Shown: positions 33,715-51,439, counted from the stretch's first letter. The stretch is 59,743 bases of DNA from a virus (IMGVR_UViG_3300015263_000360:1-59743); one strand, 5' to 3'. Numbers and translations are program-made. Notes: generated by a model from the sequence alone, not told the origin.

Positions 33715-34053
33715 TCACGGTTCACTGCGTGCGCGCAAGATTTCTTCTGCGTGCCGTCTAAGTGCCATTGCAACTGTTCTTGTCCACCATTCCACCAAAG
33801 TCTCGTTCCCCTCAGGACCCACAAATTCCCATGGATCCCCCCCGCACTCTTCGCACACGTACCGCAGGTCAGGCTCCCATGCCTGGCTAGGACCTCCACC
33901 TAATGAATGCGGTATCCATACTTGATGTCCGCATTGCCTGCATGACACGCGACCAAGCACCTGCCCACGCACGCGAACAAGCGAGTCATTCCAATGAAAA
34001 AGCTCAGCTCCTTCTGGCGGTGGTAGGTCTACCCAGTCATCATTGCGTCCCAT
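33715..34053 (-). CDS. Zinc-ribbon protein
   Basis: CRQC...CEEC. Confidence 0.6.
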   Translation of the reverse strand: MGRNDDWVDLPPPEGAELFHWNDSLVRVRGQVLGRVSCRQCGHQVWIPHSLGGGPSQAWEPDLRYVCEECGGDPWEFVGPEGNETLVEWWTRTVAMALRRHAEEILRARSEP

Positions 34054-34089
34054 GCTATCTCCTACTAGCCCACGGTTCACTGCGTGCAT

Positions 34090-34257
34090 TTATAGCGCGT
34101 CACACCAATCGTACACTTGTTCGTAATGATGACGTTTCTCTGGATCTTTTGGTTTCTTCGTGTAACGACGCTCTTTGTAGGAAGAGCTTCGTCCACACAC
34201 TGGGCACTCTATCCAGAAGAACTCATACCAGTATCCCTTCTTGGATTGCTTGCTCAC
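34090..34257 (-). CDS. Small basic protein (55 aa, MSKQSKKGYW...CPVCG), absent from the ORF track
   Basis: GTG start after GAGG; fills gap between neighbours. Confidence 0.55.
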   Translation of the reverse strand: MSKQSKKGYWYEFFWIECPVCGRSSSYKERRYTKKPKDPEKRHHYEQVYDWCDAL

Positions 34258-34626
34258 GTCCTCTCCTGATCGTATTGTATTTGAATCTTAAACCAGTCTG
34301 TCAGTTCTTTTATTCCATCTGGTTTTTTTGGTACGCGCGCAGGCGGAGCCACAGACTCTCGATAACATTGGCGGCATAGCGTGGCCTTGTATCTCTTGCG
34401 AGGTCCGCCACAATGTGCACATGTGCGTGGTGATTGTTTATGCCCTGGCATCAGTGCGAGTAAACTTTGTGATGCGGTAACGAATGTCTGTCCAAACTTG
34501 CGACAGCACACGTTTTTGTTCTCGAGCGTGTTCCCTAGTTCGGTTGATGTCCAAGAGAAGAGGATACCACACGTTTGATCCAGGGAATTGTCTTTCAACT
34601 ACCCACAAGTTCTTTAGCTTCATGGC

Positions 34627-35244
34627 TCACGCCGCCCTTCTAGCCCTCACTGCAGGTTTCTTTTTCACGGGCTCATACGGCTTCTTATCGTAGACGAGCT
34701 GCACGACTGGGTAATTCCCATGGTTTGATTTGTACTCCCAAACCTTCTTCCAACCCAGTTCAAGAAGCTCATCCAAGGATTTGTACAGCTTTTGCGTGGG
34801 GATAAGAGTCATGACTATTGCCGCGTCAGACGAATTGGATTCAGCCACAAGAGTGGTAATTCCAGGCGAGGCATTCCACATCCCAGCCAGTACAAGCAAT
34901 CGACAGCAAGAGGGAAAAGCCTGAACTTTACCACCAAAGATTCTTAAACGCCCAAGAGTCCTAATCAGGCTTGCTCTTGTCTTAGCCTTTTTAATCTTCT
35001 CTATAATCATTTGTTTAGTGATCAGTCGTCTGTATCCCCAGTAATCGAATTGCCACTTTTCCCTTGCTTTTCTTTGAAGATCTACCCGTGCTTGAACGGT
35101 CATCTCGTAGAAGTAGTTGTCTTTGAGAGTTAGTTTGGGATGTGATTGCCTAGACGAAAACACCTTTTCAATCTCAACAATAGCAGCCTCTCTCAATCTA
35201 CTAGTAATAGATTGTTCTTTCTTGGTGCTCTTCTTTGCAGTCAT
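34627..35244 (-). CDS. Hypothetical protein, possibly GNAT-like C-terminal domain
   Basis: FPSCC...LLELGWKKVWEYKSNHG..V pattern. Confidence 0.6.
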   Translation of the reverse strand: MTAKKSTKKEQSITSRLREAAIVEIEKVFSSRQSHPKLTLKDNYFYEMTVQARVDLQRKAREKWQFDYWGYRRLITKQMIIEKIKKAKTRASLIRTLGRLRIFGGKVQAFPSCCRLLVLAGMWNASPGITTLVAESNSSDAAIVMTLIPTQKLYKSLDELLELGWKKVWEYKSNHGNYPVVQLVYDKKPYEPVKKKPAVRARRAA

Positions 35245-35246
35245 AA

Positions 35247-36590
35247 CTAATCCTTGTATGGATCGAATGTACTACTTGGTGCCATGAGAACCACTCGGGG
35301 CTTCAAAGTGTGAAGCACATCAATTGTGCTAGCGTGTAACTTCATCACGTCTTCCATCTTCCTGTAGCACACGGGAGCTTCATCCACTCCGCCTCCTCTA
35401 AGAATCACGTTGGCATCTCTAACCGATTTGGTTAGATCTGATATCCCCACTTGAGGTGGTGCGATAGTGGTGAAAGAATAATCCATCTTCAGGTCTTTCT
35501 TACAGACAGGGCACTTAGGATAGTCTTCTTTAAAGACCGCGCTCGGAGAGAACCTCTCATTCACTCTTGTGCATCCAACGGTACGGCAGTACCAAGTTTT
35601 TGATGTACGAAACTTTCCACGCGCTTGGGTTCTGCTCATCAGTCTACCCGTGCCGTGCACGGTGGAAGAGAGCAGCGCCTTCTGAAGAATTCGAGCCTCA
35701 CTATTCTCTTCAAGTAGAACCTTTCCCATTACAATATGGGCAGGCCCTGTCATGCTGCTTCCGATGAATGAGATCTGTCCCGCATGGGCAGGTGTGGCTC
35801 CCTTACGGTGCACCCACACAGTGCCGATATCTGGATGAGTTTCTTTCCAGATGAAGTTGTGATGATTGTGCACAGCGTAGATTGTTTTGGCACCAAGCAC
35901 CTTAAGCGCTTGATCAATTACCCAGGCTCTTCCTATCTTGGCATAGTCACCGGCAAGATGCATGGCCGTAAGATAATGCTGTGCCTTATCAGACGTGTCC
36001 ACTAGAGTCGACTTGCTGAGGTCGGTTCTATTAGAGAAGGAATGCTCACTACCCCAGGAGTTAAACCCATTGCAAATGTTCCAGCCTAGTCCCCTAGAAC
36101 CGAAGTGTACTGCCACCCACACAGCATTAGTGGATGGTTCTATATAAAGGTTTACAAAATGATTCCCGGAACCTATGGTTCCTAGTTGGTTTCGACCCAG
36201 CTTCTTTAAGCGATCCACTTCTAGCTTTGGGATAGCCTCCCATCTCTCGTCTTCAAAGATCTCGTGGTCGGTTGGAGAGGAACTAGAGGTATTACTTTTT
36301 CCAATCCCAAACGTGAGTGTCTTTTCGAGTTCATCGGCTATCTTGTACCACTCTGAGGGAAGTAAGTCAGACGCCGAGACATTGGTTTTCACGGCCATGT
36401 TCCCGCACCCGATGTCATAGCCAGCACCTGCTATGAGGATACGGTTCTTGAAAGCTAGCACCCCTCCCACCGGAACCACGTGTCCTAAATGCCCATCTGC
36501 CAGAAGCGCACTACGTTCTGCTAGCTTACTACAATCGCGCATTTGTGTTAAGGTATTGGTATCGTGGGAACCGATGATTGTTAGTGTCAT
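35247..36590 (-). CDS. rtcB: RtcB-family RNA ligase with Cys4 insertion
   Basis: DGHLG..VPVGG, GYDIGCG, LGTIGSGNHF, HFGSRG, HHNF, HRKGAT, HGTGR.MSR, DEAP.CYR. Confidence 0.95.
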   Translation of the reverse strand: MTLTIIGSHDTNTLTQMRDCSKLAERSALLADGHLGHVVPVGGVLAFKNRILIAGAGYDIGCGNMAVKTNVSASDLLPSEWYKIADELEKTLTFGIGKSNTSSSSPTDHEIFEDERWEAIPKLEVDRLKKLGRNQLGTIGSGNHFVNLYIEPSTNAVWVAVHFGSRGLGWNICNGFNSWGSEHSFSNRTDLSKSTLVDTSDKAQHYLTAMHLAGDYAKIGRAWVIDQALKVLGAKTIYAVHNHHNFIWKETHPDIGTVWVHRKGATPAHAGQISFIGSSMTGPAHIVMGKVLLEENSEARILQKALLSSTVHGTGRLMSRTQARGKFRTSKTWYCRTVGCTRVNERFSPSAVFKEDYPKCPVCKKDLKMDYSFTTIAPPQVGISDLTKSVRDANVILRGGGVDEAPVCYRKMEDVMKLHASTIDVLHTLKPRVVLMAPSSTFDPYKD

Positions 36591-36604
36591 CTATTACCGC
36601 CTTG

Positions 36605-37417
36605 TTATACAGGGGGGAGCTCTAGCTTCCACGTGTCTACAAAATCTCGGGCTATCTTCGTGACTACATCCTCGCTTACCCAGGCGAAAGACGCGGCAAG
36701 CCCTGCTTGTTGATCCCAACGTGACTGGTTCCTGGGCTTGTTCGCTTCCTTCACTGCTTCGTTTGTTTTGTTGTAGACCCATTCAACTAGAGCATCATTA
36801 AAGATCCACGTGTTAGGCAGCGTGCGATACTCCAAGCCATAAGGCTTGGGACGAAATGCTCCTATGTTCCCATAGAGTTTCTTTCTATGGTAGTCAGGAG
36901 CAGCTACAAAGAAAGGGATCCCTAGATATGTATCAAGCAAGCTTACTATATCTCTCACGGTTTTGAAGGTCATCTTCTTTAAGGGCTCTAGCCCTAGGTG
37001 TAGATGTCCTCCTGCACTCCGCATGTTCTTGTTAGAGCTGTGCGCAGGCTGAGTCAAAGCACCGCTGTATGCATCGAAGTCTGGGTCACACCCAAAGGTG
37101 CGTGCTTGTGGAGTGGCGAGTTGTTTTTTGCTGAACTCCGCTGATGCACTTTTCAAAAGCCCACAACTGTGAGCTTCAGCAATTGTATTTACAATGGACA
37201 ATCCTTCTTTGATCTTACTTGCGAAGTTACGCAGATCCGCAGATGGACTGATGGTAAACTCAGCGGCCACGTTGTCTTCAAGGATACAAATGTTATCACT
37301 AACCGGGAGGGGCTCGTGCTTCTCTCCGCCCACCTTACCCTCTGCAGACTCTGCTTCATCCCCTCTGCTAAAGAAAACTTCCGGGTCAGCACCGATCGTC
37401 ACTAGCCGAATGTCCAT
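36605..37417 (-). CDS. phiEco32-like COOH-NH2 ligase (type 2)
   Basis: TIGADPEVF, EDNVAAEF, FGCDPDFDAY, RSAGGHLHLG, RKKLYG..GAFRPKPYGLEYRTL; GGAG RBS before 37417. Confidence 0.9.
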   Translation of the reverse strand: MDIRLVTIGADPEVFFSRGDEAESAEGKVGGEKHEPLPVSDNICILEDNVAAEFTISPSADLRNFASKIKEGLSIVNTIAEAHSCGLLKSASAEFSKKQLATPQARTFGCDPDFDAYSGALTQPAHSSNKNMRSAGGHLHLGLEPLKKMTFKTVRDIVSLLDTYLGIPFFVAAPDYHRKKLYGNIGAFRPKPYGLEYRTLPNTWIFNDALVEWVYNKTNEAVKEANKPRNQSRWDQQAGLAASFAWVSEDVVTKIARDFVDTWKLELPPV

Positions 37418-37422
37418 ACTGT

Positions 37423-37720
37423 CTCCAAGAGAAAGAACAACTCGGACGCTCTCAAGTCTGGTGAGTCTGTCCATCGAGCCGCATTTCCGTAACCATTAAC
37501 GTAGGTTCGAATGCTCCAGCCGGGTATGCCAACCAGCTCACCACGTAATCGACAAGAGCTGACCGTCGAAACGGAATCACTATATGTCTATTTAGCAGGT
37601 GACGCTATTTCGAAACCACTTCAGTGGTCTCTTGGCTCGTAGACGTGAGCTACTCGCTTGTATTTAAGGGATACAAGACCCCTGTACAGTGTTAGAAGTG
37701 AGGCCCAACTGTGCTCGGAG
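37423..37720 (-). ncRNA. Unclassified ~300-nt structured RNA or 5' leader
   Basis: No credible ORF; paired ends and several hairpins on the - strand (CUUGUAU/AUACAAG, GAGACCAC/GUGGUUUC, CAGCUC/GAGCUG, GCAUU/AAUGC). Confidence 0.6.
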
Positions 37721-37722
37721 AG

Positions 37723-37824
37723 CTATGGACCGTTGCGCCACTGCCTCGTCCACTCAATAATTATCCATCTCATGATAACTACCACTAGTATTATCGTAAG
37801 TAACCAACCGATAACACCTTTCAA
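37723..37824 (-). CDS. Small single-TM peptide (MKGVIGWLLTIILVVVIMRWIIIEWTRQWRNGP)
   Basis: TTG start after AGGAG; hydrophobic core. Confidence 0.5.
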   Translation of the reverse strand: MKGVIGWLLTIILVVVIMRWIIIEWTRQWRNGP

Positions 37825-37837
37825 TGCCACTCCTATC

Positions 37838-37914
37838 TGGTACCCACGGAGGGACTCGAACCCCCAACGCTCGGATTTTAAGTCCGACGACTCTGCCAAT
37901 TGGTCTACGCGGGC
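37838..37914 (-). tRNA. tRNA-Leu(TAA), short variable loop
   Basis: Cloverleaf, TCGGA-CTTAAAA-TCCGA, GGTTCGAGTCC, encoded CCA. Confidence 0.92.
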
Positions 37915-37943
37915 TCCTAATCATTTCCCCACTCCTTTTATGC

Positions 37944-38020
37944 TGGTGCTCTCGGGAGGACTTGAACCTCCAACCAACAGCTTAGAAGGCTGCCGCTCTA
38001 TCCTGTTGAGCTACAAGAGC
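37944..38020 (-). tRNA. tRNA-Arg(TCT)
   Basis: GCAGC-CTTCTAA-GCTGT, GGTTCAAGTCC, CCA. Confidence 0.95.
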
Positions 38021-38025
38021 TATGT

Positions 38026-38403
38026 GGAGTCAGGCTCCCACCACTGCCTTTGACCCCGTGTGCACCCCCAACAGCTCATGACGAACCCTTGGTGCACTGC
38101 CCTAACGTCTTGAGCTTGGAGGAGGTACTAGCTCCTGTCACCCCAAACCAAGACGGTAAAAGTTGGAGGATAGAGAGATCTGCCTTTGGTCGGAGAACCT
38201 TCCATTACCAGATAGCAAGTCTATGAGGCACAGTGGCCTTGACTTGGCTCTCATGAGAGCGCTGTCTGACTAGTTATCTTCGCCTACGCTAGCTCAGCGA
38301 CATCACATACCAGACTGTTTAGCGTGATACTAAAGAGCTGCTCTCTCGGATTTAGCAGGGTCCGGTTCCTGGGTGTTTCCAATTCGGGAGCCGACATGAC
38401 TCC
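38026..38403 (-). ncRNA. Unclassified ~380-nt multi-branched structured RNA
   Basis: Terminal helices GGAGUCA/UGACUCC and GGCUCCC/GGGAGCC; many internal hairpins; no credible ORF; lies between tRNA-Pro and tRNA-Arg. Confidence 0.7.
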
Positions 38404-38430
38404 GTCGTGAGGCACACCTGGCCAGAACTT

Positions 38431-38508
38431 TGGTCGGGACGAGAGGATTTGAACCTCCGACCCCTCGCTCCCAAAGCGAGTGCTCTACGCAACCTGAGCT
38501 ACGTCCCG
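38431..38508 (-). tRNA. tRNA-Pro(TGG)
   Basis: CTCGC-TTTGGGA-GCGAG, GGTTCAAATCC, CCA. Confidence 0.95.
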
Positions 38509-38901
38509 TGTATTTTCTTTCCATGTTGTGACACTCAGCAACTTCTCGCGCGGGATGAACCAGTATGCTACCAACCCAGTTACCTCGTTCCCAGGGTAGC
38601 GTCCCGCTTCGTTTCCTAACAACGCCCTCAGTTCATCCACCAGAACAGGTTGAGAGGATGTGTTTGCTGCCACGATCAGCATCTTCAAGCTAACCCAATT
38701 TCTTAGCTCGATATAATCTCGAATGGCTTGTAGCTTGTTTAGTACTTCAGGCGTGGGTCCAGTACCAAAACCACCGAAGGAATAACAACCGCAGTTGTTC
38801 TTGTCTCCTGACAGGTTCCCATATACCCATCCGTTTTGTTGATCACGGATTTCATACTGTCGGTATTGATCTAGTAGCTTGTACAAATAGAAGGTTGTCA
38901 C
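38485..38901 (-). CDS. Hypothetical protein in the tRNA array (3' end overlaps tRNA-Pro)
   Basis: GTG start after GGAG; NNCGC motif. Confidence 0.65.
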   Translation of the reverse strand: MTTFYLYKLLDQYRQYEIRDQQNGWVYGNLSGDKNNCGCYSFGGFGTGPTPEVLNKLQAIRDYIELRNWVSLKMLIVAANTSSQPVLVDELRALLGNEAGRYPGNEVTGLVAYWFIPREKLLSVTTWKENTRDVAQVA

Positions 38902-38926
38902 TTGGTATCTCCTGGAAGATTTAGAT

Positions 38927-39003
38927 TGGCACGAGAGGTAGGACTTGAACCTACAACCTCTGGGTTCAAAGCCCAGCGCTCTAACCAATTGAGCTACTCT
39001 CGA
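38927..39003 (-). tRNA. tRNA-Gln(TTG)
   Basis: CTGGG-CTTTGAA-CCCAG, GGTTCAAGTCC, GCCA end. Confidence 0.93.
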
Positions 39004-39006
39004 TCA

Positions 39007-39082
39007 TGGTGGACCGCAAGAGATTCGAACTCTCACTCCCCTGCGTGCAAGGCAGGTGCTTTCCCAGTTAAGCTAGCGGCCC
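39007..39082 (-). tRNA. tRNA-Ala(TGC)
   Basis: CCTGC-CTTGCAC-GCAGG, G3:U70, CCA. Confidence 0.95.
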
Positions 39083-39084
39083 TC

Positions 39085-39161
39085 TGGTACCGGAGAGCGG
39101 ACTCGAACCACTGACATTCTGCTTGTAAGACAGATGCTCTAACCACCTGAGCTACTCCGGT
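39085..39161 (-). tRNA. tRNA-Val(TAC)
   Basis: TCTGT-CTTACAA-GCAGA, CCA. Confidence 0.95.
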
Positions 39162-39212
39162 ATATCGTGTTGCGAGTATGCTGGTTGTGTTTACACCACT
39201 GCTAAAGGAACT

Positions 39213-39288
39213 TGGCTCTAGAGACTGGGATCGAACCAGTGTCCTTCCGGTTAACAGCCGGCTGCTCGTCCAACCGAGCTCCTCTAGA
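39213..39288 (-). tRNA. tRNA-Asn(GTT)
   Basis: CCGG-CTGTTAA-CCGG, GGTTCGATCCC, GCCA end. Confidence 0.92.
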
Positions 39289-39358
39289 ATATCAAGAGCC
39301 GCCAGAGGTCGGAGGTCCGGCCCCTAATTTATCGGCGTAGCCGGGCGGCATATTTACT

Positions 39359-39450
39359 TGGCTGAGGCAGTAGGATTTGAACCTACGGGACCGCAATGTG
39401 TCCAGTGTGTTAGCAACACACCGCATTAAGCCAGACTCTGCCATGCCTCA
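39359..39450 (-). tRNA. tRNA-Ser(GCT)
   Basis: GTGTG-TTGCTAA-CACAC, long variable arm, GCCA end. Confidence 0.93.
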
Positions 39451-39451
39451 G

Positions 39452-39529
39452 TGGGGTGACCGATGGGACTTGCACCCACAACCACCGGGTCCACAACCCA
39501 GCGCTCTATCTAATTGAGCTACGGTCAAC
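39452..39529 (-). tRNA. tRNA-His(GTG)
   Basis: CTGGG-TTGTGGA-CCCGG, G-1/C73, CCA; T-loop reads TGCAAGT. Confidence 0.9.
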
Positions 39530-39531
39530 AC

Positions 39532-39657
39532 GGGATGAAACCCCTAAGTGATACCATTGACTGGGAGGTTCGTCAACGGGTTGGAGCCTGTACATCCAGG
39601 TCTCTACCCAGCCTAGCATCCATCTTGGGTACCAATGGTTTTCCATCAAGCGGTCCC
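39532..39657. ncRNA. Rod-like structured element with resemblance to the 6S RNA closing stem
   Basis: ACCATTG/CAATGGT, CTGGGA/TCTTGG, GGGTTGG/CCAGCCT, CCTG/CAGG nested pairings. Confidence 0.4.
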
Positions 39658-39672
39658 AAGCACATGTAAGTA

Positions 39673-39749
39673 TGGTGCTCATGAGAGGATTCGAACCTCC
39701 AACATCTAGATTCTAAGTCTAGCGACTCTACCAATTGGCCTACATGAGC
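39673..39749 (-). tRNA. tRNA-Leu(TAG), short variable loop
   Basis: CTAGA-CTTAGAA-TCTAG, GGTTCGAATCC, CCA. Confidence 0.93.
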
Positions 39750-39813
39750 TATAGGGAAGGAGGTAAATTATTAAAATTTTCCTTGCTCGGGCGGAGCAAT
39801 GGTTCCTTCCCCT

Positions 39814-40266
39814 TTAAATTGCTTCTAGCCAGGTGTCTATCTCATGTTCTGGTTTGAGATAATACGAACTGTGTTCCAAGTCTTTAACCGCATGGTTAAA
39901 CACCGGGTTCTTTCGCATTATCTCCTGTATGTAGCACAGCGTGTCCCGTTTAGGAGTGAAGTGCCAATAACTAAGAGGTGTCTCTCTTTCGTATTTACTT
40001 TTACCCAGATGAAAAATCTTGAAAGGTTCAGGCACCTCAGGGAGATGGAGGTTAGAGCCCTGTATTATAGTGGCTTCTTTAGCAGCCATCCAGAAAAGCC
40101 ATGGGAGCACCATCTTTTCATTAGGGTACACGCTTGCCACGTACCCTCCACAGTTGGCCGGCAGGGGAAAGAAAGGAGGGTAGTGGTAAAATCCCCCATC
40201 TTTATAAGTCGCTCCATGAAGGTTCCAGGCGCTAACGTTGTCTAACCACTCTTGCAGCTTGTACAT
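39814..40266 (-). CDS. Hypothetical protein in the tRNA array
   Basis: 150 aa, AGGA RBS, PANCGG motif. Confidence 0.65.
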   Translation of the reverse strand: MYKLQEWLDNVSAWNLHGATYKDGGFYHYPPFFPLPANCGGYVASVYPNEKMVLPWLFWMAAKEATIIQGSNLHLPEVPEPFKIFHLGKSKYERETPLSYWHFTPKRDTLCYIQEIMRKNPVFNHAVKDLEHSSYYLKPEHEIDTWLEAI

Positions 40267-40282
40267 GTTCCGTCCTATATGT

Positions 40283-40356
40283 TGGAGCGAGTAATCGGAC
40301 TCGAACCGATCTCTCTAGCTTGGAAGGCTAGGGCACAACCTCTATACCACACTCGC
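40283..40356 (-). tRNA. tRNA-Gly(TCC)
   Basis: CTAGC-CTTCCAA-GCTAG, TCCA end. Confidence 0.95.
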
Positions 40357-40358
40357 AT

Positions 40359-40388
40359 AAAAAGGTGGCCAGATCCGGCTTGGCCACC
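40359..40388 (-). terminator. Rho-independent terminator or processing hairpin
   Basis: GGTGGCCA...TGGCCACC followed by T-run on the - strand. Confidence 0.65.
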
Positions 40389-40415
40389 AAGGACAACATG
40401 AACAGTGTTGACAGC

Positions 40416-40688
40416 TTAGCCAGCGGTCAGTTCGATTCGGCCCGACTGCATGGTGCGGGTACCGAACGACTTCTCCGGCACACCGTACTCAGCGAGGGCA
40501 CCCTCGAGGTCATTGCGCAGCCCAAAGAGTCCAGTCTTCAGACTCTTCGGGAAGCGAAACTTCCCGAGAACAGCGGCGAGTGCAGCAGCCGTGTCCTCCG
40601 ACACTGTGATGTTGATGACGACCTTTTCCTTAACGGAAACTCCCATCATGCATCTCCTGTGTGTAACCCGTTTGTAAAGAACCATCAC
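40416..40688 (-). CDS. Hypothetical protein (start probably MMGVSV)
   Basis: GGAG RBS upstream of internal Met. Confidence 0.6.
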   Translation of the reverse strand: MMVLYKRVTHRRCMMGVSVKEKVVINITVSEDTAAALAAVLGKFRFPKSLKTGLFGLRNDLEGALAEYGVPEKSFGTRTMQSGRIELTAG

Positions 40689-40737
40689 GGTGGGTTAGTC
40701 GTGAGCTGGCTCGCGCGAGATTATTCTTAGATGGCGC

Positions 40738-40812
40738 TGGAGCCCTTTCCAGGAATCGAACCCGGCTCTGAGGTTTACAAAACCCCGGCATCGCCAACAA
40801 TGCTTAAAGGGC
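40738..40812 (-). tRNA. tRNA-Thr(TGT)
   Basis: GGGGT-TTTGTAA-ACCTC, GGTTCGATTCC, TCCA end. Confidence 0.93.
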
Positions 40813-40814
40813 AA

Positions 40815-41267
40815 TTAGTAGAAGTAGGGTTCTCCATGGATATGCATGTAGTATGCATCCATGCAGTTCTTGATGCCGTCCACCGTGGCTCTTTTGAACG
40901 CAATAGGCACGCCCACGTAGGGACTAGCTGTGTCAATTGGATTCTTCCAAGCCACTCCTAAGCCCTTGTCCATGTAGACCACATCTCCAATTCGAAGTTC
41001 CAGATCTGCAATCACCACGGTGTATCTACCCACCGTATGCCACGCATACTGAATGACAACCGGCTTAGCTTTACCGAAAGCCTTACGGAACCTGTGACTA
41101 CGATTCAGCGTGCGCTTGATTCGTCTCCAGGCTCTTTGCAAAAGGGCCTCTGCCACCTCAGGAGTTAGTGGCGGCTTCGGCGGAGGCGTGTCAGTAGTGG
41201 CTGGCTCAACCAGACGCAACGCTGGCTTCTCTGGCTCTAGCTCTGAGTCCACCAATTCAGTGTTCAT
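40815..41267 (-). CDS. Hypothetical protein
   Basis: MNTELV start, ATGA overlap with exonuclease gene. Confidence 0.65.
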   Translation of the reverse strand: MNTELVDSELEPEKPALRLVEPATTDTPPPKPPLTPEVAEALLQRAWRRIKRTLNRSHRFRKAFGKAKPVVIQYAWHTVGRYTVVIADLELRIGDVVYMDKGLGVAWKNPIDTASPYVGVPIAFKRATVDGIKNCMDAYYMHIHGEPYFY

Positions 41268-42310
41268 TGTTTTTCCTTTCGCCCTAGGGTGCAGAAGTTT
41301 GCCACGTCGCAGTAGAGTTGACATCTTGTGTTTACTCCTGGTCTGTGCTCCACGTACAGTACTTCTTTGGGCTTCTGGTTCTTGTTGATCCAGGCGTGTG
41401 CTTCTCCAGGAGAATCGCAGCGAATAATCGCCGTTGCTCTACCCTTCTTCATTACAGCCCAGTGCTCTTCCTTAGTCCAACGCTCTTCCGGTGTGCAGAG
41501 AGGAATGTTTTCATCCGACATTTCCTCTGCCTCGATGTGTGCTTCAATTCTTTTGATCATGTCTTCTAGGGTTTGATCCAAAGACCACAACGGAATCTCC
41601 ATCTGATCCGTTTGCTGTTTTGGATAACCCCTTTCGAACATGGCCTTACGCTTTACCCAATCTCGAGCGATGGGGTGGAAGATTACACGATCTGTCTCGA
41701 GTCCATTGACATGCAGAAGGTAGCGGTACCTATTGCCTTGTGCCACCCACTCATCCTTCAGACTTTTCATTGCGAAAACAGAGCAGACCTTGTAGTCATT
41801 GAGCACTCTGTCTGGAGTGATTAATCCAGATCTATCGTATAAGTCCACCTGTCCCGACACTTTCTTCGTGCCGTACTTTGTGGGAATGTCTGCAAAAAAC
41901 CTCTTTTCAAAGAGAAGTCCATGGTGATCCCAGACATATTCCTTATTTGACTCGAGCACTGCAAGTGCGATGGCTTCGTGAAGGGAATCAGAGGCCACGT
42001 CTCCTGAAGCGAAGGAGTATAGCACCTCTTCGATGGCTGTCCATCGGCCGGTCACATTCTTCTCAGCCAGAATCTTAACTGCGTTCTCAAGAATCTGGTG
42101 AACAATCTTACCAAAGAGCATATAGATTCTTTCTGATGCTTCCTTGGTAACCTGATCTCCATAGCGAGTGTTCAATGCCCGGACCAATACCGGAATTGAT
42201 AGCTCAGTTACTGAGAAGTCCGCCCCCTCCTTTGAGTAATTGTCCTCCCCTAGCACAGCAAGGAGAGGGAGCGGTAGGTTGAAAGAATCTACTAGCTTTT
42301 GGTCACTCAT
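41264..42310 (-). CDS. PD-(D/E)xK exonuclease (Cas4/RecB-like)
   Basis: FSVTEL, GKIVHQILE, EKRF, SGQVDL, DYKV, Q.N.Y; C-terminal RC..YC....FC. Confidence 0.85.
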   Translation of the reverse strand: MSDQKLVDSFNLPLPLLAVLGEDNYSKEGADFSVTELSIPVLVRALNTRYGDQVTKEASERIYMLFGKIVHQILENAVKILAEKNVTGRWTAIEEVLYSFASGDVASDSLHEAIALAVLESNKEYVWDHHGLLFEKRFFADIPTKYGTKKVSGQVDLYDRSGLITPDRVLNDYKVCSVFAMKSLKDEWVAQGNRYRYLLHVNGLETDRVIFHPIARDWVKRKAMFERGYPKQQTDQMEIPLWSLDQTLEDMIKRIEAHIEAEEMSDENIPLCTPEERWTKEEHWAVMKKGRATAIIRCDSPGEAHAWINKNQKPKEVLYVEHRPGVNTRCQLYCDVANFCTLGRKEKQ

Positions 42311-44025: not shown

Positions 44026-44883
44026 TCATGCTGCAATCAGTCCTTCCATTAACGCCTTAGATGCGCAACTGTAGCACAAGCGAACCTGTTTGTCAATGTA
44101 ACAAGAGTCGTTCTCTAGAAATTCCTCTTGGCATTGGTCGCACGTGGCACCCGCGTCTATCCAATCCCACCCATTGGTTCTTAGCTCTGTTACCCTGATC
44201 CTGGGGAGACCATAGTTCGGAGTCGTATCCACCACGGTTGGGGTATGGGCGAATTTTCCTTTACTCCCACCCCCACCACTCTCTGTCTGGGAAGTAAGCT
44301 GGTACTGCTGGTAGTGACTTTTTTTTTCGTAGTCTTTCCAGCCCTCGTTTGAGTAGTGAACCCCAGTGGTTTCATCCTTAGACCAGGACTTGGGTTGTGT
44401 AATCGCCAATCTCCCCAGGTTGTCCAGGAAAACCAGTCTGCTACTCCCCGCCTTGTCTGCCACGAGGTTAAGAATAGCCTGATTCGTGTGGAAGTTACGT
44501 GGTAACTTCTGCAGCACATCATGCATGTATTGCTTGGTGTCCGAGTTGTTATCTTTCAGGTTTTTATTATAGTAACCCGGAATTACTCCATTGTGGAAGA
44601 GGAGGAGATTCTTGTTAACCCAGAACGGATGTACATTCTGCACGCTCACTGTACCGTGGGTGCGTATCCTGAAATGCAGAACGAATTGACTGTTCTTGTG
44701 TTCGTCCCAATGCTTGCGGTATAACTTCCACAATCGCTTCTTACTGTTGAGTTCTTTAACCACAGACAGGCGGCCGTTGTGCGCATAAGCAAACCCCCCA
44801 CCATCTGAGTTCCGTTCCCACAATCTATAGAACTGACCCTTCGATAGAGCCACTTTCCTGGGGCAGATTGCAATAATGCACAT
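44026..44883 (-). CDS. Class II (Ntn) glutamine amidotransferase
   Basis: MCII (Cys2 nucleophile), N.DG.G, HFRIRTHG, NVHPF, HNGVI, SDT; C-terminal CxxC..CxxC. Confidence 0.9.
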   Translation of the reverse strand: MCIIAICPRKVALSKGQFYRLWERNSDGGGFAYAHNGRLSVVKELNSKKRLWKLYRKHWDEHKNSQFVLHFRIRTHGTVSVQNVHPFWVNKNLLLFHNGVIPGYYNKNLKDNNSDTKQYMHDVLQKLPRNFHTNQAILNLVADKAGSSRLVFLDNLGRLAITQPKSWSKDETTGVHYSNEGWKDYEKKSHYQQYQLTSQTESGGGGSKGKFAHTPTVVDTTPNYGLPRIRVTELRTNGWDWIDAGATCDQCQEEFLENDSCYIDKQVRLCYSCASKALMEGLIAA

Positions 44884-46583
44884 TACGCTACACTCCTATA
44901 GCCCTTAGTCAAGGGTCGATGTATCACCTTGATATTACGAATCAAAGGACTCTTGTTCCTTTTCGTGTCAGTCAACAGCTTGACATCTAACCAGCTAAGC
45001 GTGGCTTTGTGATACTTCTGTAGCTGTTCCACTGGAAACACCACGCGAGTACCGTGTTGAGCAGTCCAGATTTCCACATCGGATATCTCGATGCGCTCAA
45101 GGTCGAGTCCCATATAGTAACAGGACCATCGCAGCATTGGCTGCCGATTTGGCTCTCCTGCGTCCCGTCCGGCCGTTAGCGTGGCCCTGCCTACCATCTC
45201 GTTGGTTTCTGAATCCCTTATGTAAAATGTTACAGAGGCAGGAGACGATTCTAAATCTGACTGATGATCAAACCAATGATGTGCGGGATTAAGATGGTTC
45301 AGTGTCAGCCTAGGGTTACCCGAGATAAAGATTGCTGATGATTCCACCTCATGGTACTTTGCAGCGAGCATTGCTTCACGGCACATAGAAAGAGCTTGCC
45401 TCTCATTCCAGCATGGCCCCTGTAAAATGAAGTAAGCCATGGGTATCGCTTCTCCGTCTGGTGTGGTGTGCTGAAAGTTTACCACGGCTGTGCTTGTCAA
45501 AGGCCCGATGGCTCCCACACGAGAGTTACGCTCAGCAATCTTTCCCTCAAGAGAAGAGGGCTTTAAAGCAGCATTGCCCACGGTAATCTTTGAGATCTTG
45601 GGTGACTTGATATTGGCGGCCTTGTTGATGCACTTCTGGGTCTTAGCTGCAGCATAAGGGAGTTCCTTCTTATGCTTTAAGAGCCACTCCACAAATCCCG
45701 GTATGCTCATCTGCTGAAAAGAGATGGCCGCTGTATACCTCCTCACGGCTTCCACGAGTTCCACGTTTGCCATGATCGAGTCAGGATTTAAAGTGCCCCG
45801 AAATACTCTGATCTCCACGGTATGAGCGGTGCTGTTTACCACCGAATGATGGTCGTCATGTGTTCCCGCAAGCAGTGCTGGATTAATACCATGGGTAAAC
45901 GCATATCTTGCCGGGTCCGTTTCATACGGTAGGAGATAAGTGGTGCATGCTCTCCTAACAAATGCCTTCGGATCCTTGTGAAACCATGCAAACCGTAAGA
46001 CCTTCTTCAAATCAGTGCGATTGCTGTAAGCCAAGAAGAATGCCGGATTCCGGTGCACAAATGCCTGGAACCTGAGCTGGTGTAGATCTCCCCAAAAGGC
46101 TGATTTTGAAATGTGCACGTGCATACCGCAAGTGTTCCCTTTGTATGAAGTGAACCCTGCAGTTTGCAAGTCTTTGCACAATTTCTTCCAAAGAGGATAG
46201 CTCTCGTGCCAGAAGTTCAGCGTCCAAGGATGACTGACAAGCTCCACGCCATCCTCAAGAGAAGCGTCTTGCTTCACATAGAGCTGCAGCTTTCTTATCA
46301 TGGGCTCCACGTCTTGGATAGCCGCGTAGGACCACTGTGTTCTACCATGATAGGTGTTAGGCTCTCCTCTATTCCAAAGCCACACTTCAGAAGGCGTGTC
46401 CTGATTGACCGTGGTAGTCCTTTGTCTTACTCCTCTCCACCAGCTCTCTAACTTCTCTCGTGCAGGAGGTAGGAGTTCTGTTTCGAGTTCCACGCCAAAG
46501 AAAACATGGGCGTTCTCATTTTCTTTTTTTGTCCAGGAGAAACGTGGTGTGGGTTTGTGTCCCCATGCGTTTACTTCGATCAT
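44883..46583 (-). CDS. Putative amidoligase (COOH-NH2 ligase fold) with C-terminal extension
   Basis: FGVELETE, KQDASL..GVELVSHP, CGMHVHIS, TVEIRVFRGTLN. Confidence 0.88.
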   Translation of the reverse strand: MIEVNAWGHKPTPRFSWTKKENENAHVFFGVELETELLPPAREKLESWWRGVRQRTTTVNQDTPSEVWLWNRGEPNTYHGRTQWSYAAIQDVEPMIRKLQLYVKQDASLEDGVELVSHPWTLNFWHESYPLWKKLCKDLQTAGFTSYKGNTCGMHVHISKSAFWGDLHQLRFQAFVHRNPAFFLAYSNRTDLKKVLRFAWFHKDPKAFVRRACTTYLLPYETDPARYAFTHGINPALLAGTHDDHHSVVNSTAHTVEIRVFRGTLNPDSIMANVELVEAVRRYTAAISFQQMSIPGFVEWLLKHKKELPYAAAKTQKCINKAANIKSPKISKITVGNAALKPSSLEGKIAERNSRVGAIGPLTSTAVVNFQHTTPDGEAIPMAYFILQGPCWNERQALSMCREAMLAAKYHEVESSAIFISGNPRLTLNHLNPAHHWFDHQSDLESSPASVTFYIRDSETNEMVGRATLTAGRDAGEPNRQPMLRWSCYYMGLDLERIEISDVEIWTAQHGTRVVFPVEQLQKYHKATLSWLDVKLLTDTKRNKSPLIRNIKVIHRPLTKGYRSVA

Positions 46584-46595
46584 AACATGTCCTCG

Positions 46596-46675
46596 TGGTG
46601 GAGCGGGTGGGAGTTGAACCCACTTATTGACAGAGGTTATAAGCCTCTCGCTTTATACCGATCAGCCACCGCTCG
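46596..46675 (-). tRNA. tRNA-Ile(TAT)
   Basis: AGAGG-CTTATAA-CCTCT, GGTTCAACTCC, ACCA end; C1-C72 mismatch. Confidence 0.8.
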
Positions 46676-46986: not shown

Positions 46987-47277
46987 TCATTTCTCCTCCA
47001 GTTCCGTGAGGCGGGCGCGAAGGTGTGCCGCCACTTTCAGAATGTCGTCAACAGGAACGATGCGCTCGCGTGCTGGATTAGCAAAGTCTTTGTATGGAGT
47101 CGGCCACGTTTCCTCCCATCTGATGACATCCTCTAGCGCATTGACCTGCGCCTTGAGAGCGGTGCGCTCGATCAGGCGGCGGACCGGTTCAATGGTGTAG
47201 TGCCAATCGGCCTCCGTGTCGAGAAAGGCCCTTTCAATCTCCTCGTCGCTCGGCATCCAACTCGGTCGGTCACTCAC
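46987..47277 (-). CDS. Hypothetical protein
   Basis: 96-aa ORF coupled to neighbours. Confidence 0.6.
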   Translation of the reverse strand: MSDRPSWMPSDEEIERAFLDTEADWHYTIEPVRRLIERTALKAQVNALEDVIRWEETWPTPYKDFANPARERIVPVDDILKVAAHLRARLTELEEK

Positions 47278-47524
47278 GGTTGCGCCCCTTCTCCCGCTCG
47301 GCGGCTTCCAGGTGGTCGAATAAATCAGTGACCAATGCAGCGAGTTGCCACCTTTGATCCACCCTTCCGGCTTGTGTTGATCTCTCTTGGTAGAGAATAT
47401 CTGTTGATCGAATTACCATCCGTTCCGCCAGCGCCCGAATGCGCGCGGCGCGGTCGGGATATCCCCCCGTGATCTTCAAGCCGTGAGACATGATGGTTGT
47501 CTCTGCGTCTTCCCATTGAACCAT
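47270..47524 (-). CDS. Hypothetical protein
   Basis: GGGAGGGGAG RBS before MVQWED. Confidence 0.6.
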   Translation of the reverse strand: MVQWEDAETTIMSHGLKITGGYPDRAARIRALAERMVIRSTDILYQERSTQAGRVDQRWQLAALVTDLFDHLEAAEREKGRNRE

Positions 47525-47537
47525 CACTCCCCTCCCT

Positions 47538-47867
47538 TCACGGTCTGATGTCCAGGTGGTTCTCTTGGAGACAGAGTTCCACGAGTTTTTCCACTGAGAA
47601 ATGCGGCCCAAACACGGCTGTTCCCCTGTAAGTGAAAAGTTCCCTAGCCTCATGCTCTTCTGCTGTGAGAGCTGCCTTGAAGACCGTTTGTACTAGTTCG
47701 CTCACGGTCATATGCTTGCTCAGTAGCCAGTTTCTGCTGTGCCATGTCTTGTCTTCCACTGTGAATGTCCAGCGGAAGTAGAAGAACGTGCCATGGTCCA
47801 CCACTTCAGGGCTCCAGTCTTTGTATTCGACCCTGGAGAGGATTTGAACTGCTTGGAGTGCATCCAT
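47538..47867 (-). CDS. Hypothetical phage protein
   Basis: GGAGG RBS; R.WLLSKHMT.SELVQT.FKA.LTAEEHEARE.F motif. Confidence 0.75.
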   Translation of the reverse strand: MDALQAVQILSRVEYKDWSPEVVDHGTFFYFRWTFTVEDKTWHSRNWLLSKHMTVSELVQTVFKAALTAEEHEARELFTYRGTAVFGPHFSVEKLVELCLQENHLDIRP

Positions 47868-47918
47868 GTGAACCTCCGATGCTCACGGTTCGTTGCTTAC
47901 TGCCACCCCCGACCCGGC

Positions 47919-47970
47919 AAAAAAGGGGAGGGAGCCGGGGAGCGCAAAGGCGCTTCTACCCGGCCCCCTC
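47919..47970 (-). terminator. Rho-independent terminator
   Basis: GAGGGGGCCGGG...CCCGGCTCCCTC followed by CCC and T6 on the - strand. Confidence 0.75.
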
Positions 47971-47991
47971 GTGGGGAACTTCTGTGGGCGA

Positions 47992-48174
47992 CTAGGCCGC
48001 CTTGGTCTCGAGGAGGACCGCCTCCTCCAGCTTGGCCTCCGCTTCGGCGTGGTCGCCACGCGCTTCGGCCTTGAGGGCGGCGATGAACTTCGCCTTGACG
48101 GCGAGCTTGAGTCCGTCGATGCCCGGCAGGCTGGAAGCCTCCTTCAGCGGGGTGTTCTCGTGGAACAAGTTCAT
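47992..48174 (-). CDS. Small helical protein
   Basis: 60 aa, GGAG RBS, high GC3. Confidence 0.7.
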   Translation of the reverse strand: MNLFHENTPLKEASSLPGIDGLKLAVKAKFIAALKAEARGDHAEAEAKLEEAVLLETKAA

Positions 48175-48175
48175 G

Positions 48176-49222
48176 TCACTCTCCGATCTGGGACTGCGTG
48201 ATGGTGGGGGAATCCGGGGCCGGACCGTGGGACGGTTCCAGATCCACCGGGACGATGTTGTCCTTCCGGTACAGCTCTCCGGCGTGGGCCACCACGATCT
48301 CGAAGGGCGAGGGACAGGAGACCTGGAACCGGATGTTGTTCTCGAGGCTCAGCGAACTGAGCTTCTCGAGGAAGTTCTGCTGGGCCTTCTCGGCCTCTGA
48401 CTCCCGCTCGAAGGGCACCCGGAGAGTCTTCACGTCACCGGGCTTCATCTGCAGGAGACGGCCGATCTGCGTCACGTCCGACTTGCGCGTCTTCTCGTGC
48501 ATCTTCAGCACGTTAGGTACACGCTCCATCATCTTGACCTGGATCATGTACCGCTCGTCGTTGGGGTCCTTGATCCACTGTAGCGAGTAGGGCTCCGAGT
48601 AGTCCCCGTTCTCGACCACCCAGTAGTCGAACTTGATCGTGGTCGGCTCCGTCCACACGGTCTCTCCGGTGAACAGCGCCTGACGCTGCTGGTGGTCCGA
48701 CGTGGCGTTGATCTGCATCCTGACCTTCTGCTGCTCCAGCCCGAAGTTCAGGTGGCGCACCCCACGCATGATGGCGCGCATGAACTCCCACGAGGTCAGC
48801 TCGTCGTGGTTCGGCCACTCCGGCACCTGGGGCGGCTGCTCCTGCTCCGCGCTCGGCTTGAAGAAGCGCGTGATCTTCGCCTGCGCCTCCTTGCGGAAGA
48901 ACTCGCGGTTCTCCGGGTTTCCGAACTGCTCCTTGAGCCAGGCCAGGTTCACCGTGAACGAGTCCTGCTGCCGGGACTTGTACGACGCCAGGAGGCGGTT
49001 CCTCACCGAGCGAGCCAGCCACGCCTTGACGTAGGGGAGGATGGCGTTGGTCCGAGCCTGCGACTTCTCCTTCTCCGTGGGCTCGTTCTCGTCGGCAACT
49101 CCGAAGAGGAGCCTCGAGTCCTCTGCGTTCAGCGTGAGTTCCTCGAACAGCGCCTGAACCTCGTTCTCCTTCTCCTGCGACTCCACGATCTGACCCACGG
49201 TGGACAGCGGCTTCGTGTTCAT
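48176..49222 (-). CDS. Hypothetical early protein with very high GC3
   Basis: 348 aa, GGAG RBS, nearly all codons end in G/C. Confidence 0.85.
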   Translation of the reverse strand: MNTKPLSTVGQIVESQEKENEVQALFEELTLNAEDSRLLFGVADENEPTEKEKSQARTNAILPYVKAWLARSVRNRLLASYKSRQQDSFTVNLAWLKEQFGNPENREFFRKEAQAKITRFFKPSAEQEQPPQVPEWPNHDELTSWEFMRAIMRGVRHLNFGLEQQKVRMQINATSDHQQRQALFTGETVWTEPTTIKFDYWVVENGDYSEPYSLQWIKDPNDERYMIQVKMMERVPNVLKMHEKTRKSDVTQIGRLLQMKPGDVKTLRVPFERESEAEKAQQNFLEKLSSLSLENNIRFQVSCPSPFEIVVAHAGELYRKDNIVPVDLEPSHGPAPDSPTITQSQIGE

Positions 49223-49543
49223 TTGTCACTCCGTGCCCGAATAGGGCTAAGTCTGGGCAAGATTGCCCAACTACAAGTGCGATCAGCACTTAGGTTCGTT
49301 TTCCTAGGCTCATGCACACGCACGAGCACGAGGAAATTTTCAGCAGAAGCGAAGTGCAGCGCGGATCTTCTGCTCTGCGTGCTTCCCCTTCAGCCGGCCC
49401 TCGAGCACTTCCTTGCAGCGCTCTCGGTCGTTGAACTGCAACCCCTTGCAGGAGTGGTCTAGCACGTCCCCCACGTTGGACTTCTGTCGGAAGGTGAGGG
49501 CGAGTCTGGCGTGCAGGGCTGCGCGTCTGCTCATGATCGTCTC

Positions 49544-49741
49544 CTAGTGAGTGTCGATGCGAGCGGCATCGAGGGTTTGCTTCATCTCTCGGGCCAATTC
49601 CCGAGTGAGTTCCAAGCGTTCCGGGTTGATCACTTCATCCAGGATCGACACCAGATCCTCGAACTCTTCCGAAGTGAGAGTCACTGTCACTGAATCCAAT
49701 CGAGTGACTTCCACCCGAGTTCCCTGCTTCTTGACCTGCAT
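49544..49741 (-). CDS. Hypothetical protein
   Basis: AGGAGG RBS. Confidence 0.6.
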   Translation of the reverse strand: MQVKKQGTRVEVTRLDSVTVTLTSEEFEDLVSILDEVINPERLELTRELAREMKQTLDAARIDTH

Positions 49742-49846
49742 CTCATGACCTCCTTGTACCGATTACTCTGTCTTTCCCTGTGCTGCATACACTTAAGACC
49801 CAAAGTGTAACACAGGATCACACTCACTGACAGAGCGGCCATCATG

Positions 49847-50038
49847 TTAGCTCATCGCTTCCACGTCGAAGTAGCCCACGTGATCGGTGTGCTCAGCCTG
49901 CTCGATGGCCTCAGCTTCGGAGCTGAAGGGGCCGAGAGTGGAAAGGCCGTCTCGAAGGAAGTAGGTGTTCTCATCCTCGAAGTCCAGCGCACGGAAGAGA
50001 GTCCAGCCTGCCCAAACTCCGATCTCCACTTCACGCAT
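49847..50038 (-). CDS. Hypothetical protein
   Basis: AGGAG RBS; GPFSSEAEA motif. Confidence 0.6.
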   Translation of the reverse strand: MREVEIGVWAGWTLFRALDFEDENTYFLRDGLSTLGPFSSEAEAIEQAEHTDHVGYFDVEAMS

Positions 50039-51246: not shown

Positions 51247-51248
51247 GG

Positions 51249-51431: not shown

Positions 51432-51439
51432 GACACACC

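Follow-up and report, generated by a model that had tools for sequence, protein, structure and literature searches.

Orphan genes and spacers between the tRNAs of a phage array that neighbours RtcB

What fills the gaps between phage tRNA genes, and do the genes beside such an array work together with it? The question is raised by a block of minus-strand genes at positions 34,627 to 40,812 of IMGVR_UViG_3300015263_000360, a stretch of 59,743 nucleotides of viral DNA that we analysed at its full length and call the window. The block holds 12 tRNAs, a set of small genes, a phiEco32-type COOH-NH2 ligase gene and the gene of an RtcB RNA ligase that carries a four-cysteine (Cys4) insert. A previous interpretation made by eye, which we call the sequence-only reading, proposed that four structured non-coding RNAs are interleaved with the tRNAs and that they form, with the ligase and RtcB, a new RNA-centred system of translation protection or RNA repair. 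We favour a different account, to which we assign a probability of roughly 0.7: the block is an ordinary phage tRNA array in a minus-strand early/replication module, with orphan genes and spacers between its tRNAs, and the ligase is not a member of it. The negative tests described below lead us to see the spacers as, most likely, sequence involved in processing or regulation, or else as evolutionary filler, rather than as a family of structured RNAs. The proposed RNA-centred system gives way on three counts: the gaps are in part genes, the spacers find no support from fold, known family or homologues, and the ligase is not linked to RtcB.

The tRNA array and the genes within it

The genome is complete (59,743 bp, direct terminal repeats, 100% completeness) and comes from a marine-sediment metagenome. 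By PHROG matches, its plus strand encodes the terminase large subunit, portal and major head protein, and its minus strand a primase/helicase, a Sak4-like annealing protein and an exonuclease. The tRNA/RtcB block lies inside this minus-strand early/replication module of a tailed phage. ARAGORN finds 13 tRNAs in the genome, 12 of them on the minus strand at 37838-40812, just as the sequence-only reading had counted, and a 13th, tRNA-Ile(UAU), at 46596-46675. Infernal backs all 12 array tRNAs at 44-73 bits (11 at the gathering threshold and the twelfth at 44.3 bits), and their anticodons are mostly of the U34 type. Comparison of codon usage with the tRNA set gives a mixed picture that is uninformative without a host: AGA has a relative synonymous codon usage of 2.0, and ATA, TTA and GTA are rare.

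Codon usage and Shine-Dalgarno sites indicate that three of the large gaps between tRNAs are occupied by protein genes (p77, p150 and p138). We trained a codon-usage model on 19 long genes of the phage and took as a null 104 wrong-frame open reading frames (ORFs) of at least 70 codons, whose maximum score was +0.098. Per-codon scores were +0.18 to +0.32 for p77, p150 and p138 and +0.15 for p205, the gene that follows RtcB, all above the 104 null ORFs (Table 1). p77 occupies most of the 381-nt gap between tRNA-Thr and tRNA-Gly (40357-40737); if this gap is what the sequence-only reading meant by its RNA of about 380 nt, that RNA is coding sequence. Of the orphan proteins described there, p205, p138 and p150 are present, and p77 is a fourth ORF missing from its inventory. 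The small transmembrane peptide is present as well, as a 33-aa ORF that is the sole minus-strand ORF led by a Shine-Dalgarno site in otherwise ORF-free gaps. The stop codon of p138 lies 24 nt within tRNA-Pro (38485-38508), so that excision of this tRNA would remove the end of the p138 frame.

None of p77, p150, p138 and p205 matches a Pfam or PHROG family. Among 5.8 billion proteins, p150 and p138 match only themselves (p138 with the same start), and p205 finds itself and one weak partial match (E 1e-4) among 1.84 billion representatives. The p77 ORF also occurs in the Atlas, from residue 2, where its best score, 0.88 to viral hypothetical clusters, is a lead only; p205 has no usable feature match in the Atlas, with template-modelling scores of at most 0.36 on a poor model. 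AlphaFold2 (AF2) single-sequence models of p150 (pLDDT 31.5) and p138 (pLDDT 36.9) are unusable.

The remaining question about the array itself is whether its gaps hide further tRNA-related elements. ARAGORN, run with introns allowed or not, reported no intron-bearing tRNA and no transfer-messenger RNA (tmRNA). Decayed tRNAs were sought in the spacers by local alignment to the 13 tRNAs, which scored no better than shuffles, and ARAGORN at a lowered threshold returned two antisense artefacts only and no tRNA remnant. Sigma-70 promoters and terminators were not found on the minus strand of the spacers, where totals were at or below shuffle expectation. A terminator-like hairpin between p77 and tRNA-Gly, odd within an array presumed to form a single transcript, was read from the sequence, having been missed by the terminator scan with its loop limit of 8. 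The hairpin may serve in processing or attenuation.

ORF-free spacers: folding, families and conservation

Five stretches, of 410, 306, 144, 70 and 64 nt, hold no ORF on either strand. We scored their folding energies as z values against dinucleotide shuffles. The 410-nt spacer has z -0.47/-0.50, with 31/100 and 48/150 shuffles folding as well; the 306-nt stretch z -1.30/-1.34 (10/100 and 15/150); and the 144-nt spacer z -1.69/-1.56 (10/200 and 9/150). The two smallest stretches score lower, at z -3.78 for the 64-nt hairpin and z -2.44 for the 70-nt hairpin, each with 0/200 shuffles as stable. As controls, a tmRNA from the array of another viral contig (locus L144) gave z -4.54 with 0/150 shuffles as stable, and three coding segments of the phage gave z -1.5 to -3.7 with 0 to 10 of 150. 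Folding stands out for the 64- and 70-nt hairpins only; the neighbouring genes are, if anything, more structured than the large spacers, and sliding windows across the spacers resemble coding background. The term "structured" of the sequence-only reading is supported for the two small hairpins only. A crude genome-wide list holds 17 uncalled stretches of at least 120 nt; it misses weak genes and is not used here as evidence.

Known RNA families were sought with Rfam cmscan (4227 families, region 34000-41500, E<=5), which gave 23 matches: the 12 tRNAs and 11 sub-threshold ones. Eight of the 11 overlap tRNA genes (seven plastid untranslated-region models in antisense, and mascRNA on tRNA-Arg), and the other three, all at chance level, fall in the 410-nt spacer, p77 and the neighbouring gene p169. 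The sole match in a spacer is mir-46, in the 410-nt spacer, with 20.6 bits against a cut-off of 44.7 and E 2.2. There is no covariance-model match at or near gathering in the spacers for tmRNA, RNase P, signal recognition particle RNA, 6S, GOLLD, ROOL, raiA, group I or II introns or YrlA, which bears out the impression gained by eye that tmRNA, RNase P, signal recognition particle and group I signatures are lacking.

Homologues of the spacers were sought in phage records and in 172 loci gathered around the two ligases: 92 loci of the COOH-NH2 ligase (12 viral and 80 metagenomic; 83 non-redundant) and 80 viral RtcB loci. Against 50,697 phage records the spacers gave nothing but one chance-level match of 36 nt (E 0.3, query 37475-37837). 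Blastn at E<=0.05 against the 172 loci and nhmmer at E<=10 over their 2.1 Mb gave no match, and blastn at E<=1 against the first 13 loci gave chance-level short matches only (E>=0.03). When the array DNA was compared with five records reached via the loci, the tRNAs alone matched.

Relatives of the phage itself are similarly scarce. Queries with the exonuclease, p150 and Sak4 found no relatives of the phage among viral contigs, the major head protein found two contigs only (5.1 and 12.9 kb, 68-70% identity), which lack the array, and the major head and portal proteins had no match among genome contigs. The closest ligase relative in viral and metagenome contigs has 42-43% identity; the metagenomic ligase loci, which are the best 80 of 95, are all at 42% identity or less and none is syntenic with the phage. 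Among sequencing runs, three DNA runs of one marine-sediment study and no RNA run were listed for the phage, and one of the three may be the source sample. Their contigs held identical pieces of the same phage and tRNAs of other organisms, with no variant strain, so that no substitution pattern could be read.

Other phage arrays offer a comparison for gaps of this kind. Across them, 38 inter-tRNA gaps reach at least 250 nt, and 13 of the 38 have a longest ORF that takes up 35% or less of the gap. Gaps with little ORF content, 270-1300 nt in length, are frequent in these arrays (L144, L161, L157, L058, L010). When 13 ORF-poor gaps (one with a 39% ORF) were compared across loci, they were not conserved, with two exceptions: a gap common to the related arrays L161 and L157 matches at its edges only, and L058 and L010 share 188 nt at 68%. 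ORF-poor spacers seem, from these comparisons, to be common and fast-changing in phage tRNA arrays.

Several points weigh against the reading of the block as an ordinary array with ordinary spacers. A 7+7-bp helix (14 bp) joins the ends of the 410-nt spacer with a pair probability of 0.95-0.97, and this non-coding stretch is bounded exactly by two tRNAs, so that tRNA processing would free a discrete fragment. The whole 363-nt stretch at 37475-37837, folded in one piece, beats all 100 shuffles (z -3.37), and thermodynamic z-scores overlook some real RNAs. With neither an array-bearing relative nor a homologous spacer sequence found, conservation of the spacers is undetectable rather than disproved, which makes its lack weak evidence. 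The ORF-poor gaps of other arrays could themselves conceal unrecognised RNAs. Finally, the ligase, RtcB and p205 genes are packed like an operon, with spacings of 14 and 2 nt, and a functional link among them in this one phage is possible.

These points bear most directly on the alternative that one or more of the ORF-free spacers, chiefly that at 38021-38430, are new stable structured RNAs cut from the tRNA precursor, serving translation protection as decoys or scaffolds or in some RtcB-related role. The alternative gains from the lack of ORF or coding signal in the 410-, 306- and 144-nt stretches, from a site between tRNAs that guarantees excision, and from the precedents of GOLLD and ROOL, of the tmRNA in the L144 array and of T4 RNAs C and D, to which we return below. 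Yet the 410-nt spacer, at z about -0.5, folds more weakly than the coding controls, quite apart from the tmRNA at -4.5, and its paired ends, correctly noticed in the sequence-only reading, are less telling than they look: an end-to-end duplex as stable or more so arises in 35/500 dinucleotide shuffles of the spacer, and the 3.5-kb region has 22 inverted pairs whose arms reach 10 nt or more, so terminal helices of this sort are common. Nor do Rfam, a YrlA element above cut-off, a Ro/TROVE protein, the phage records or the 172 loci lend the idea a family or a homologue, and ORF-poor gaps in other arrays are frequent and poorly conserved. The further proposal was that the RNAs, once released by tRNA processing, are circularised by RtcB. 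Cleavage by RNase P and RNase Z yields 5'-phosphate and 3'-OH ends. RtcB requires a 5'-OH together with a 2',3'-cyclic phosphate or 3'-phosphate, according to PMC3458531. Circularisation of the spacers by RtcB is therefore chemically unlikely. On balance we consider new stable RNAs at this locus improbable, and slightly more so in the specific form in which the 410-nt spacer (perhaps also the 306- and 144-nt ones) would be a lineage-specific stable RNA, excised by way of its tRNA-acceptor-like 7+7-bp helix by the enzymes of tRNA processing, and taking part in the conflict that also engages the tRNAs and RtcB, for example as a decoy for a host nuclease directed at tRNAs.

The 306-nt stretch, likely a leader or a spacer, invites a second alternative, in which it would be a cis-acting leader of a ligase-RtcB-p205 operon whose processing site and Shine-Dalgarno-masking helix couple the repair genes to tRNA-precursor processing or stress. 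The 8 nt at its beginning are paired, in both the minimum free energy (MFE) and the centroid structure, with the 8 nt that contain GGAG and immediately precede ATG 37416, although the fold comes from a single sequence and ATG 37416 is itself the probable ligase start, favoured over the 37474 start of the longest ORF by the GGAG site and by homologue N-termini. The tight packing of the three genes suits a shared leader, as does the low z of the whole 37475-37837 stretch, but the 306-nt stretch alone reaches only z -1.3, has no sigma-70-like promoter or terminator on the minus strand, and has a homologous leader in 0/92 ligase loci. We regard this leader as no better a prospect than new stable RNAs. 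Of the points on which the sequence-only reading had staked its case, two, conservation of the segments and co-occurrence of the ligase with RtcB, came out negative; conservation is the weak one of the two, no close relative of the phage having been found, and co-occurrence is taken up next.

RtcB, its tRNA neighbours and the COOH-NH2 ligase

Pfam, PHROG and alignment confirm the identification of both an RtcB with a Cys4 insert and a phiEco32-type COOH-NH2 ligase. RtcB matches PF01139 (E 2.6e-54, residues 19-330), phrog_1075 (E 5.1e-63) and the RtcB chains of the PDB (E 1.9e-18). The motifs DGH, DIxCGN, GSGNH, HxGSRGxG, HNHHN, RKGAT and HGxGR are invariant in a 13-sequence alignment and align to the P. 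horikoshii enzyme; they serve in metal and GMP binding, and the catalytic motifs are intact. An insert of ~40 aa with the pattern CxxxxC...CPxC separates HGxGR from the (V/I)LRGG block near the C-terminus. An insert of this kind, ~35-40 aa long, is found in 8/12 RtcB homologues picked by length from 120 listed, and in 8/77 parsed viral RtcB loci (L108, L114, L116, L117, L120, L144, L146, L155) plus 2/3 unparsed loci judged by eye (also L126, L148). We know of no description of this subgroup, and no literature search was aimed at it. Identity to any other RtcB is at most 43-44% among the matches listed. The database copy of the phage's RtcB has 410 aa, 92% of the ORF used here.

The position of RtcB near tRNAs is not peculiar to this phage. 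At least one tRNA lies within 10 kb in 32/80 viral RtcB loci and within 3 kb in 18/80, at least three tRNAs are present in 13/80, and RtcB is embedded in arrays of 24-32 tRNAs in L144, L157, L161 and L183. The first of these (L144:1-11323) is a viral contig whose single co-oriented array combines 29 tRNAs with a tmRNA (1243-1550, 114 bits) and an RtcB of the insert type. Archease, RtcA and Ro/TROVE genes are absent from the window. YrlA gave five sub-threshold matches, the best with 16.6 bits against a cut-off of 69 and lying on a tRNA; four are on or across tRNAs, and the fifth runs into the peptide ORF. Passages in PMC7824862 describe how RNA ligases of the RtcB-like and ATP-grasp kinds complement phage tRNAs by rejoining tRNAs that have been cut, and passages in PMC8421152 place rtcB near bacterial tRNA L-arrays and co-regulated with them. 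Phage tRNAs that evade tRNA-targeting defences are treated in PMC10264068, PMC11555353 and PMC11464382. RtcB beside phage tRNA arrays is thus a recurrent arrangement and already described.

How the block may work can be sketched from knowledge of these families, to be set beside the gene identities, which are what we observe directly. The array tRNAs are probably transcribed together with the flanking genes; no sigma-70-like promoter was found in the spacers. Host RNase P and RNase Z/E would then cut the tRNAs out, and the pieces between them would serve as short mRNAs for p77, p150, p138, the transmembrane peptide and the ligase-RtcB-p205 trio, or would be discarded. By analogy with other phages, the tRNAs would sustain phage translation, either by supplying under-provided codons or by replacing host tRNAs cut by defence nucleases. 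RtcB, if it keeps its family function, would reseal the 2',3'-cyclic-phosphate/5'-OH breaks left by metal-independent nucleases. A tRNA array beside RtcB fits translation protection combined with tRNA repair; to this extent the module of the sequence-only reading stands, as a known arrangement, while the spacers as non-coding RNAs and the ligase as a member are not upheld.

The ligase belongs, as far as its neighbourhood elsewhere indicates, to other company. Its 92 loci, at 28-43% identity, have RtcB in their flanks in 0/92 cases, and the 80 viral RtcB loci have the ligase in 0/80. Within 4 kb on the same strand at the 83 non-redundant loci, the neighbours are Peptidase_C26/class-I glutamine amidotransferase (GATase; 45 loci), an unnamed 266-aa protein (30), GGACT (22), Amidoligase_2 (19), class-II GATase (17) and an ATP-grasp-like family (14), the last judged by eye from sequence and named by no Pfam entry. 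Two of these partners occur in the phage: Amidoligase_2 and class-II GATase sit ~7 kb upstream of the ligase, so that the cluster is present but split. Peptidase C26, GGACT and ATP-grasp partners are absent from the genome by tblastn from ligase-locus neighbours. The same gene set is tabulated for LUZ24-like phages in a section of PMC3890496. From these neighbourhoods, the ligase appears to lie outside the RNA module and to be a member of a widespread phage amidoligase/GATase cluster, its place before RtcB being, we suggest, a local accident of gene order peculiar to this genome.

Same-strand tRNAs do occur in the flanks of 16/92 ligase loci, always on the ligase strand, which fits shared residence in early regions over a functional tie. 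The tRNA-Ile(UAU) beside the phage's Amidoligase_2 has counterparts in ligase loci L068 and L092. That ligase and RtcB act jointly on RNA, for instance by modifying tRNAs or repaired ends with aminoacyl or peptidyl groups, with p205 as third part of a new repair module, is very improbable: the two genes are immediately adjacent and co-oriented and some ligase loci have tRNAs, but the pair recurs in none of the loci of either enzyme, the ligase's conserved neighbours are an amidotransferase, a cyclotransferase and an amidoligase, two of which lie elsewhere in this genome, and p205 has a homologue in 0 of 80 RtcB loci besides its single weak match among the protein representatives.

Table 1. Positions of features in the block and of the split amidoligase cluster, in order along the minus strand
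Feature	Position	Strand	Evidence and remarks
Amidoligase_2 (PF12224)	44883-46583	-	Directly after tRNA-Ile(UAU); Pfam; E values of this gene and the next 8.5e-7 and 5.7e-7
Class-II GATase (PF13230)	44026-44883	-	Follows Amidoligase_2; Pfam and tblastn from ligase-locus neighbours
tRNA-Thr(UGU)	40738..40812	-	First array gene, starts 2 nt past p169 stop; ARAGORN, Infernal (44.3 bits)
p77, 77-aa orphan	40416..40649	-	AGGAG 4-7 nt before ATG-ATG; codon score +0.27/+0.32, above all 104 null ORFs
Terminator-like hairpin	40357..40388	-	8-bp GC-rich stem, 9-nt loop, U-run; abuts tRNA-Gly; -17.8 kcal/mol
tRNA-Gly(UCC)	40283..40356	-	ARAGORN, Infernal
p150, 150-aa orphan	39814..40266	-	Shine-Dalgarno site, then ATG; codon score +0.16/+0.18, 0/104 null ORFs as high
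64-nt branched hairpin, p150 stop to tRNA-Leu(UAG)	39750..39813	-	MFE -22.9 kcal/mol
tRNA-Leu(UAG)	39673..39749	-	ARAGORN, Infernal
144-nt spacer	39529..39672	-	No Shine-Dalgarno-led ORF on minus strand; the "~125 nt" segment of the sequence-only reading
tRNA-His(GUG) and tRNA-Ser(GCU)	39359..39528	-	ARAGORN, Infernal
70-nt spacer with GC-rich hairpin	39289..39358	-	ORF-free
tRNA-Asn(GUU), 51-nt unstructured spacer, tRNA-Val(UAC), tRNA-Ala(UGC), tRNA-Gln(UUG)	38927..39288	-	ARAGORN, Infernal
p138, 138-aa orphan	38485..38901	-	GTG after AGGAG; codon score +0.15/+0.20, 0/104 null ORFs as high
tRNA-Pro(UGG)	38431..38508	-	ARAGORN, Infernal
410-nt spacer, tRNA-Pro to tRNA-Arg	38021..38430	-	No coding signal in any frame; 378 nt enclosed by paired ends; strongest candidate left for a non-coding RNA
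tRNA-Arg(UCU) and tRNA-Leu(UAA)	37838..38020	-	ARAGORN, Infernal
33-aa hydrophobic, single transmembrane-like peptide ORF	37723..37824	-	TTG start after AGGAG
306-nt stretch, peptide stop to probable ligase start 37416	37417..37722	-	ORF-free
phiEco32-type COOH-NH2 ligase (type 2)	36605..37474	-	PF14395 E 3.5e-12, 46.6 bits vs cut-off 25; phrog_3815 E 3.7e-65
RtcB with Cys4 (zinc-ribbon-like) insert	35247..36590	-	Starts 14 nt past ligase stop
p205, orphan	34627..35244	-	Starts 2 nt past RtcB stop; codon score +0.13/+0.15

Elsewhere in the window, positions 47000-52000 have a GC content of 0.57-0.63 against ~0.50 in the rest. ORFs overlap there on both strands, and the region may have been inserted from a foreign source. 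A 348-aa ORF in this region (48176-49222) has no PHROG match.

Related arrangements and biological meaning

The closest counterparts of the block are phage tRNA arrays paired with a ligase for RNA repair (RtcB or Rnl), an arrangement that passages on jumbo phages (PMC7824862) and bacterial L-arrays (PMC8421152) describe and that is also seen in loci L144, L157, L161 and L183. They are alike in their co-oriented tRNAs, in an adjacent or embedded RtcB, in the small ORFs and spacers between tRNAs, and in a presumed role against tRNA-cleaving nucleases. The present array differs in having 12 tRNAs only in a 60-kb genome, in that both the array and an unrelated amidoligase gene precede RtcB, and in that the interspersed ORFs are all orphans. 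For the ligase, the counterpart is the LUZ24/PaP3/tf-type cluster of COOH-NH2_lig, Amidoligase_2, class-II GATase, ATP-grasp and AIG2/GGCT (tabulated in PMC3890496), of which the first three are present here; recombination genes and the tRNA array part the ligase from Amidoligase_2 and class-II GATase in this phage.

Other known systems resemble the locus in its non-coding stretches. GOLLD and ROOL are found close to tRNAs as well as in prophages, as a portion of PMC5737381 reports. Together with the phage tmRNA of L144, they provide non-ORF stretches of hundreds of nt between phage tRNAs, whereas the spacers here are smaller (144-410 nt), have no Rfam match of that kind at E<=5 and no homologue family, and the large two are without thermodynamic signal. 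The T4 tRNA cluster yields the stable RNAs C and D (species 1 and 2), which are processed by RNase P. The likeness is in non-tRNA RNAs freed from a tRNA precursor, and a terminal helix such as that of the 410-nt spacer could mimic a tRNA processing signal; the T4 RNAs have been seen as stable molecules, whereas the spacers here are known from their sequence. In bacteria, operons join rsr (Ro), a Y RNA (YrlA) and rtcBA. These resemble the locus in placing RtcB by a non-coding RNA with pairing 5' and 3' ends, and differ from it in that the phage has no TROVE/Ro, no YrlA above cut-off, and no RtcA or archease.

If the 410-nt spacer were nonetheless a stable RNA, the puzzle of T4 RNAs C and D would extend to environmental phages, and the ORF-poor spacers of phage tRNA arrays (13/38 large gaps elsewhere) would form a reservoir, as yet unexploited, of RNAs that evolve fast. 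On the reading we prefer, that of an ordinary tRNA array beside RtcB, the implications are of another kind. What looks to the eye like a structured non-coding RNA in a tRNA array can prove to be a small orphan gene or an ordinary spacer, and a phiEco32-type ligase is not to be annotated as RNA-related from chance adjacency. The Cys4 insert marks a recurrent RtcB subgroup, viral as well as metagenomic, that is open to biochemical study. For phage biology more broadly, the locus would add one more case of a known arrangement, in which phage tRNAs and an RNA-repair ligase are set against translation-targeting defences, in a phage lineage without sequenced relatives.

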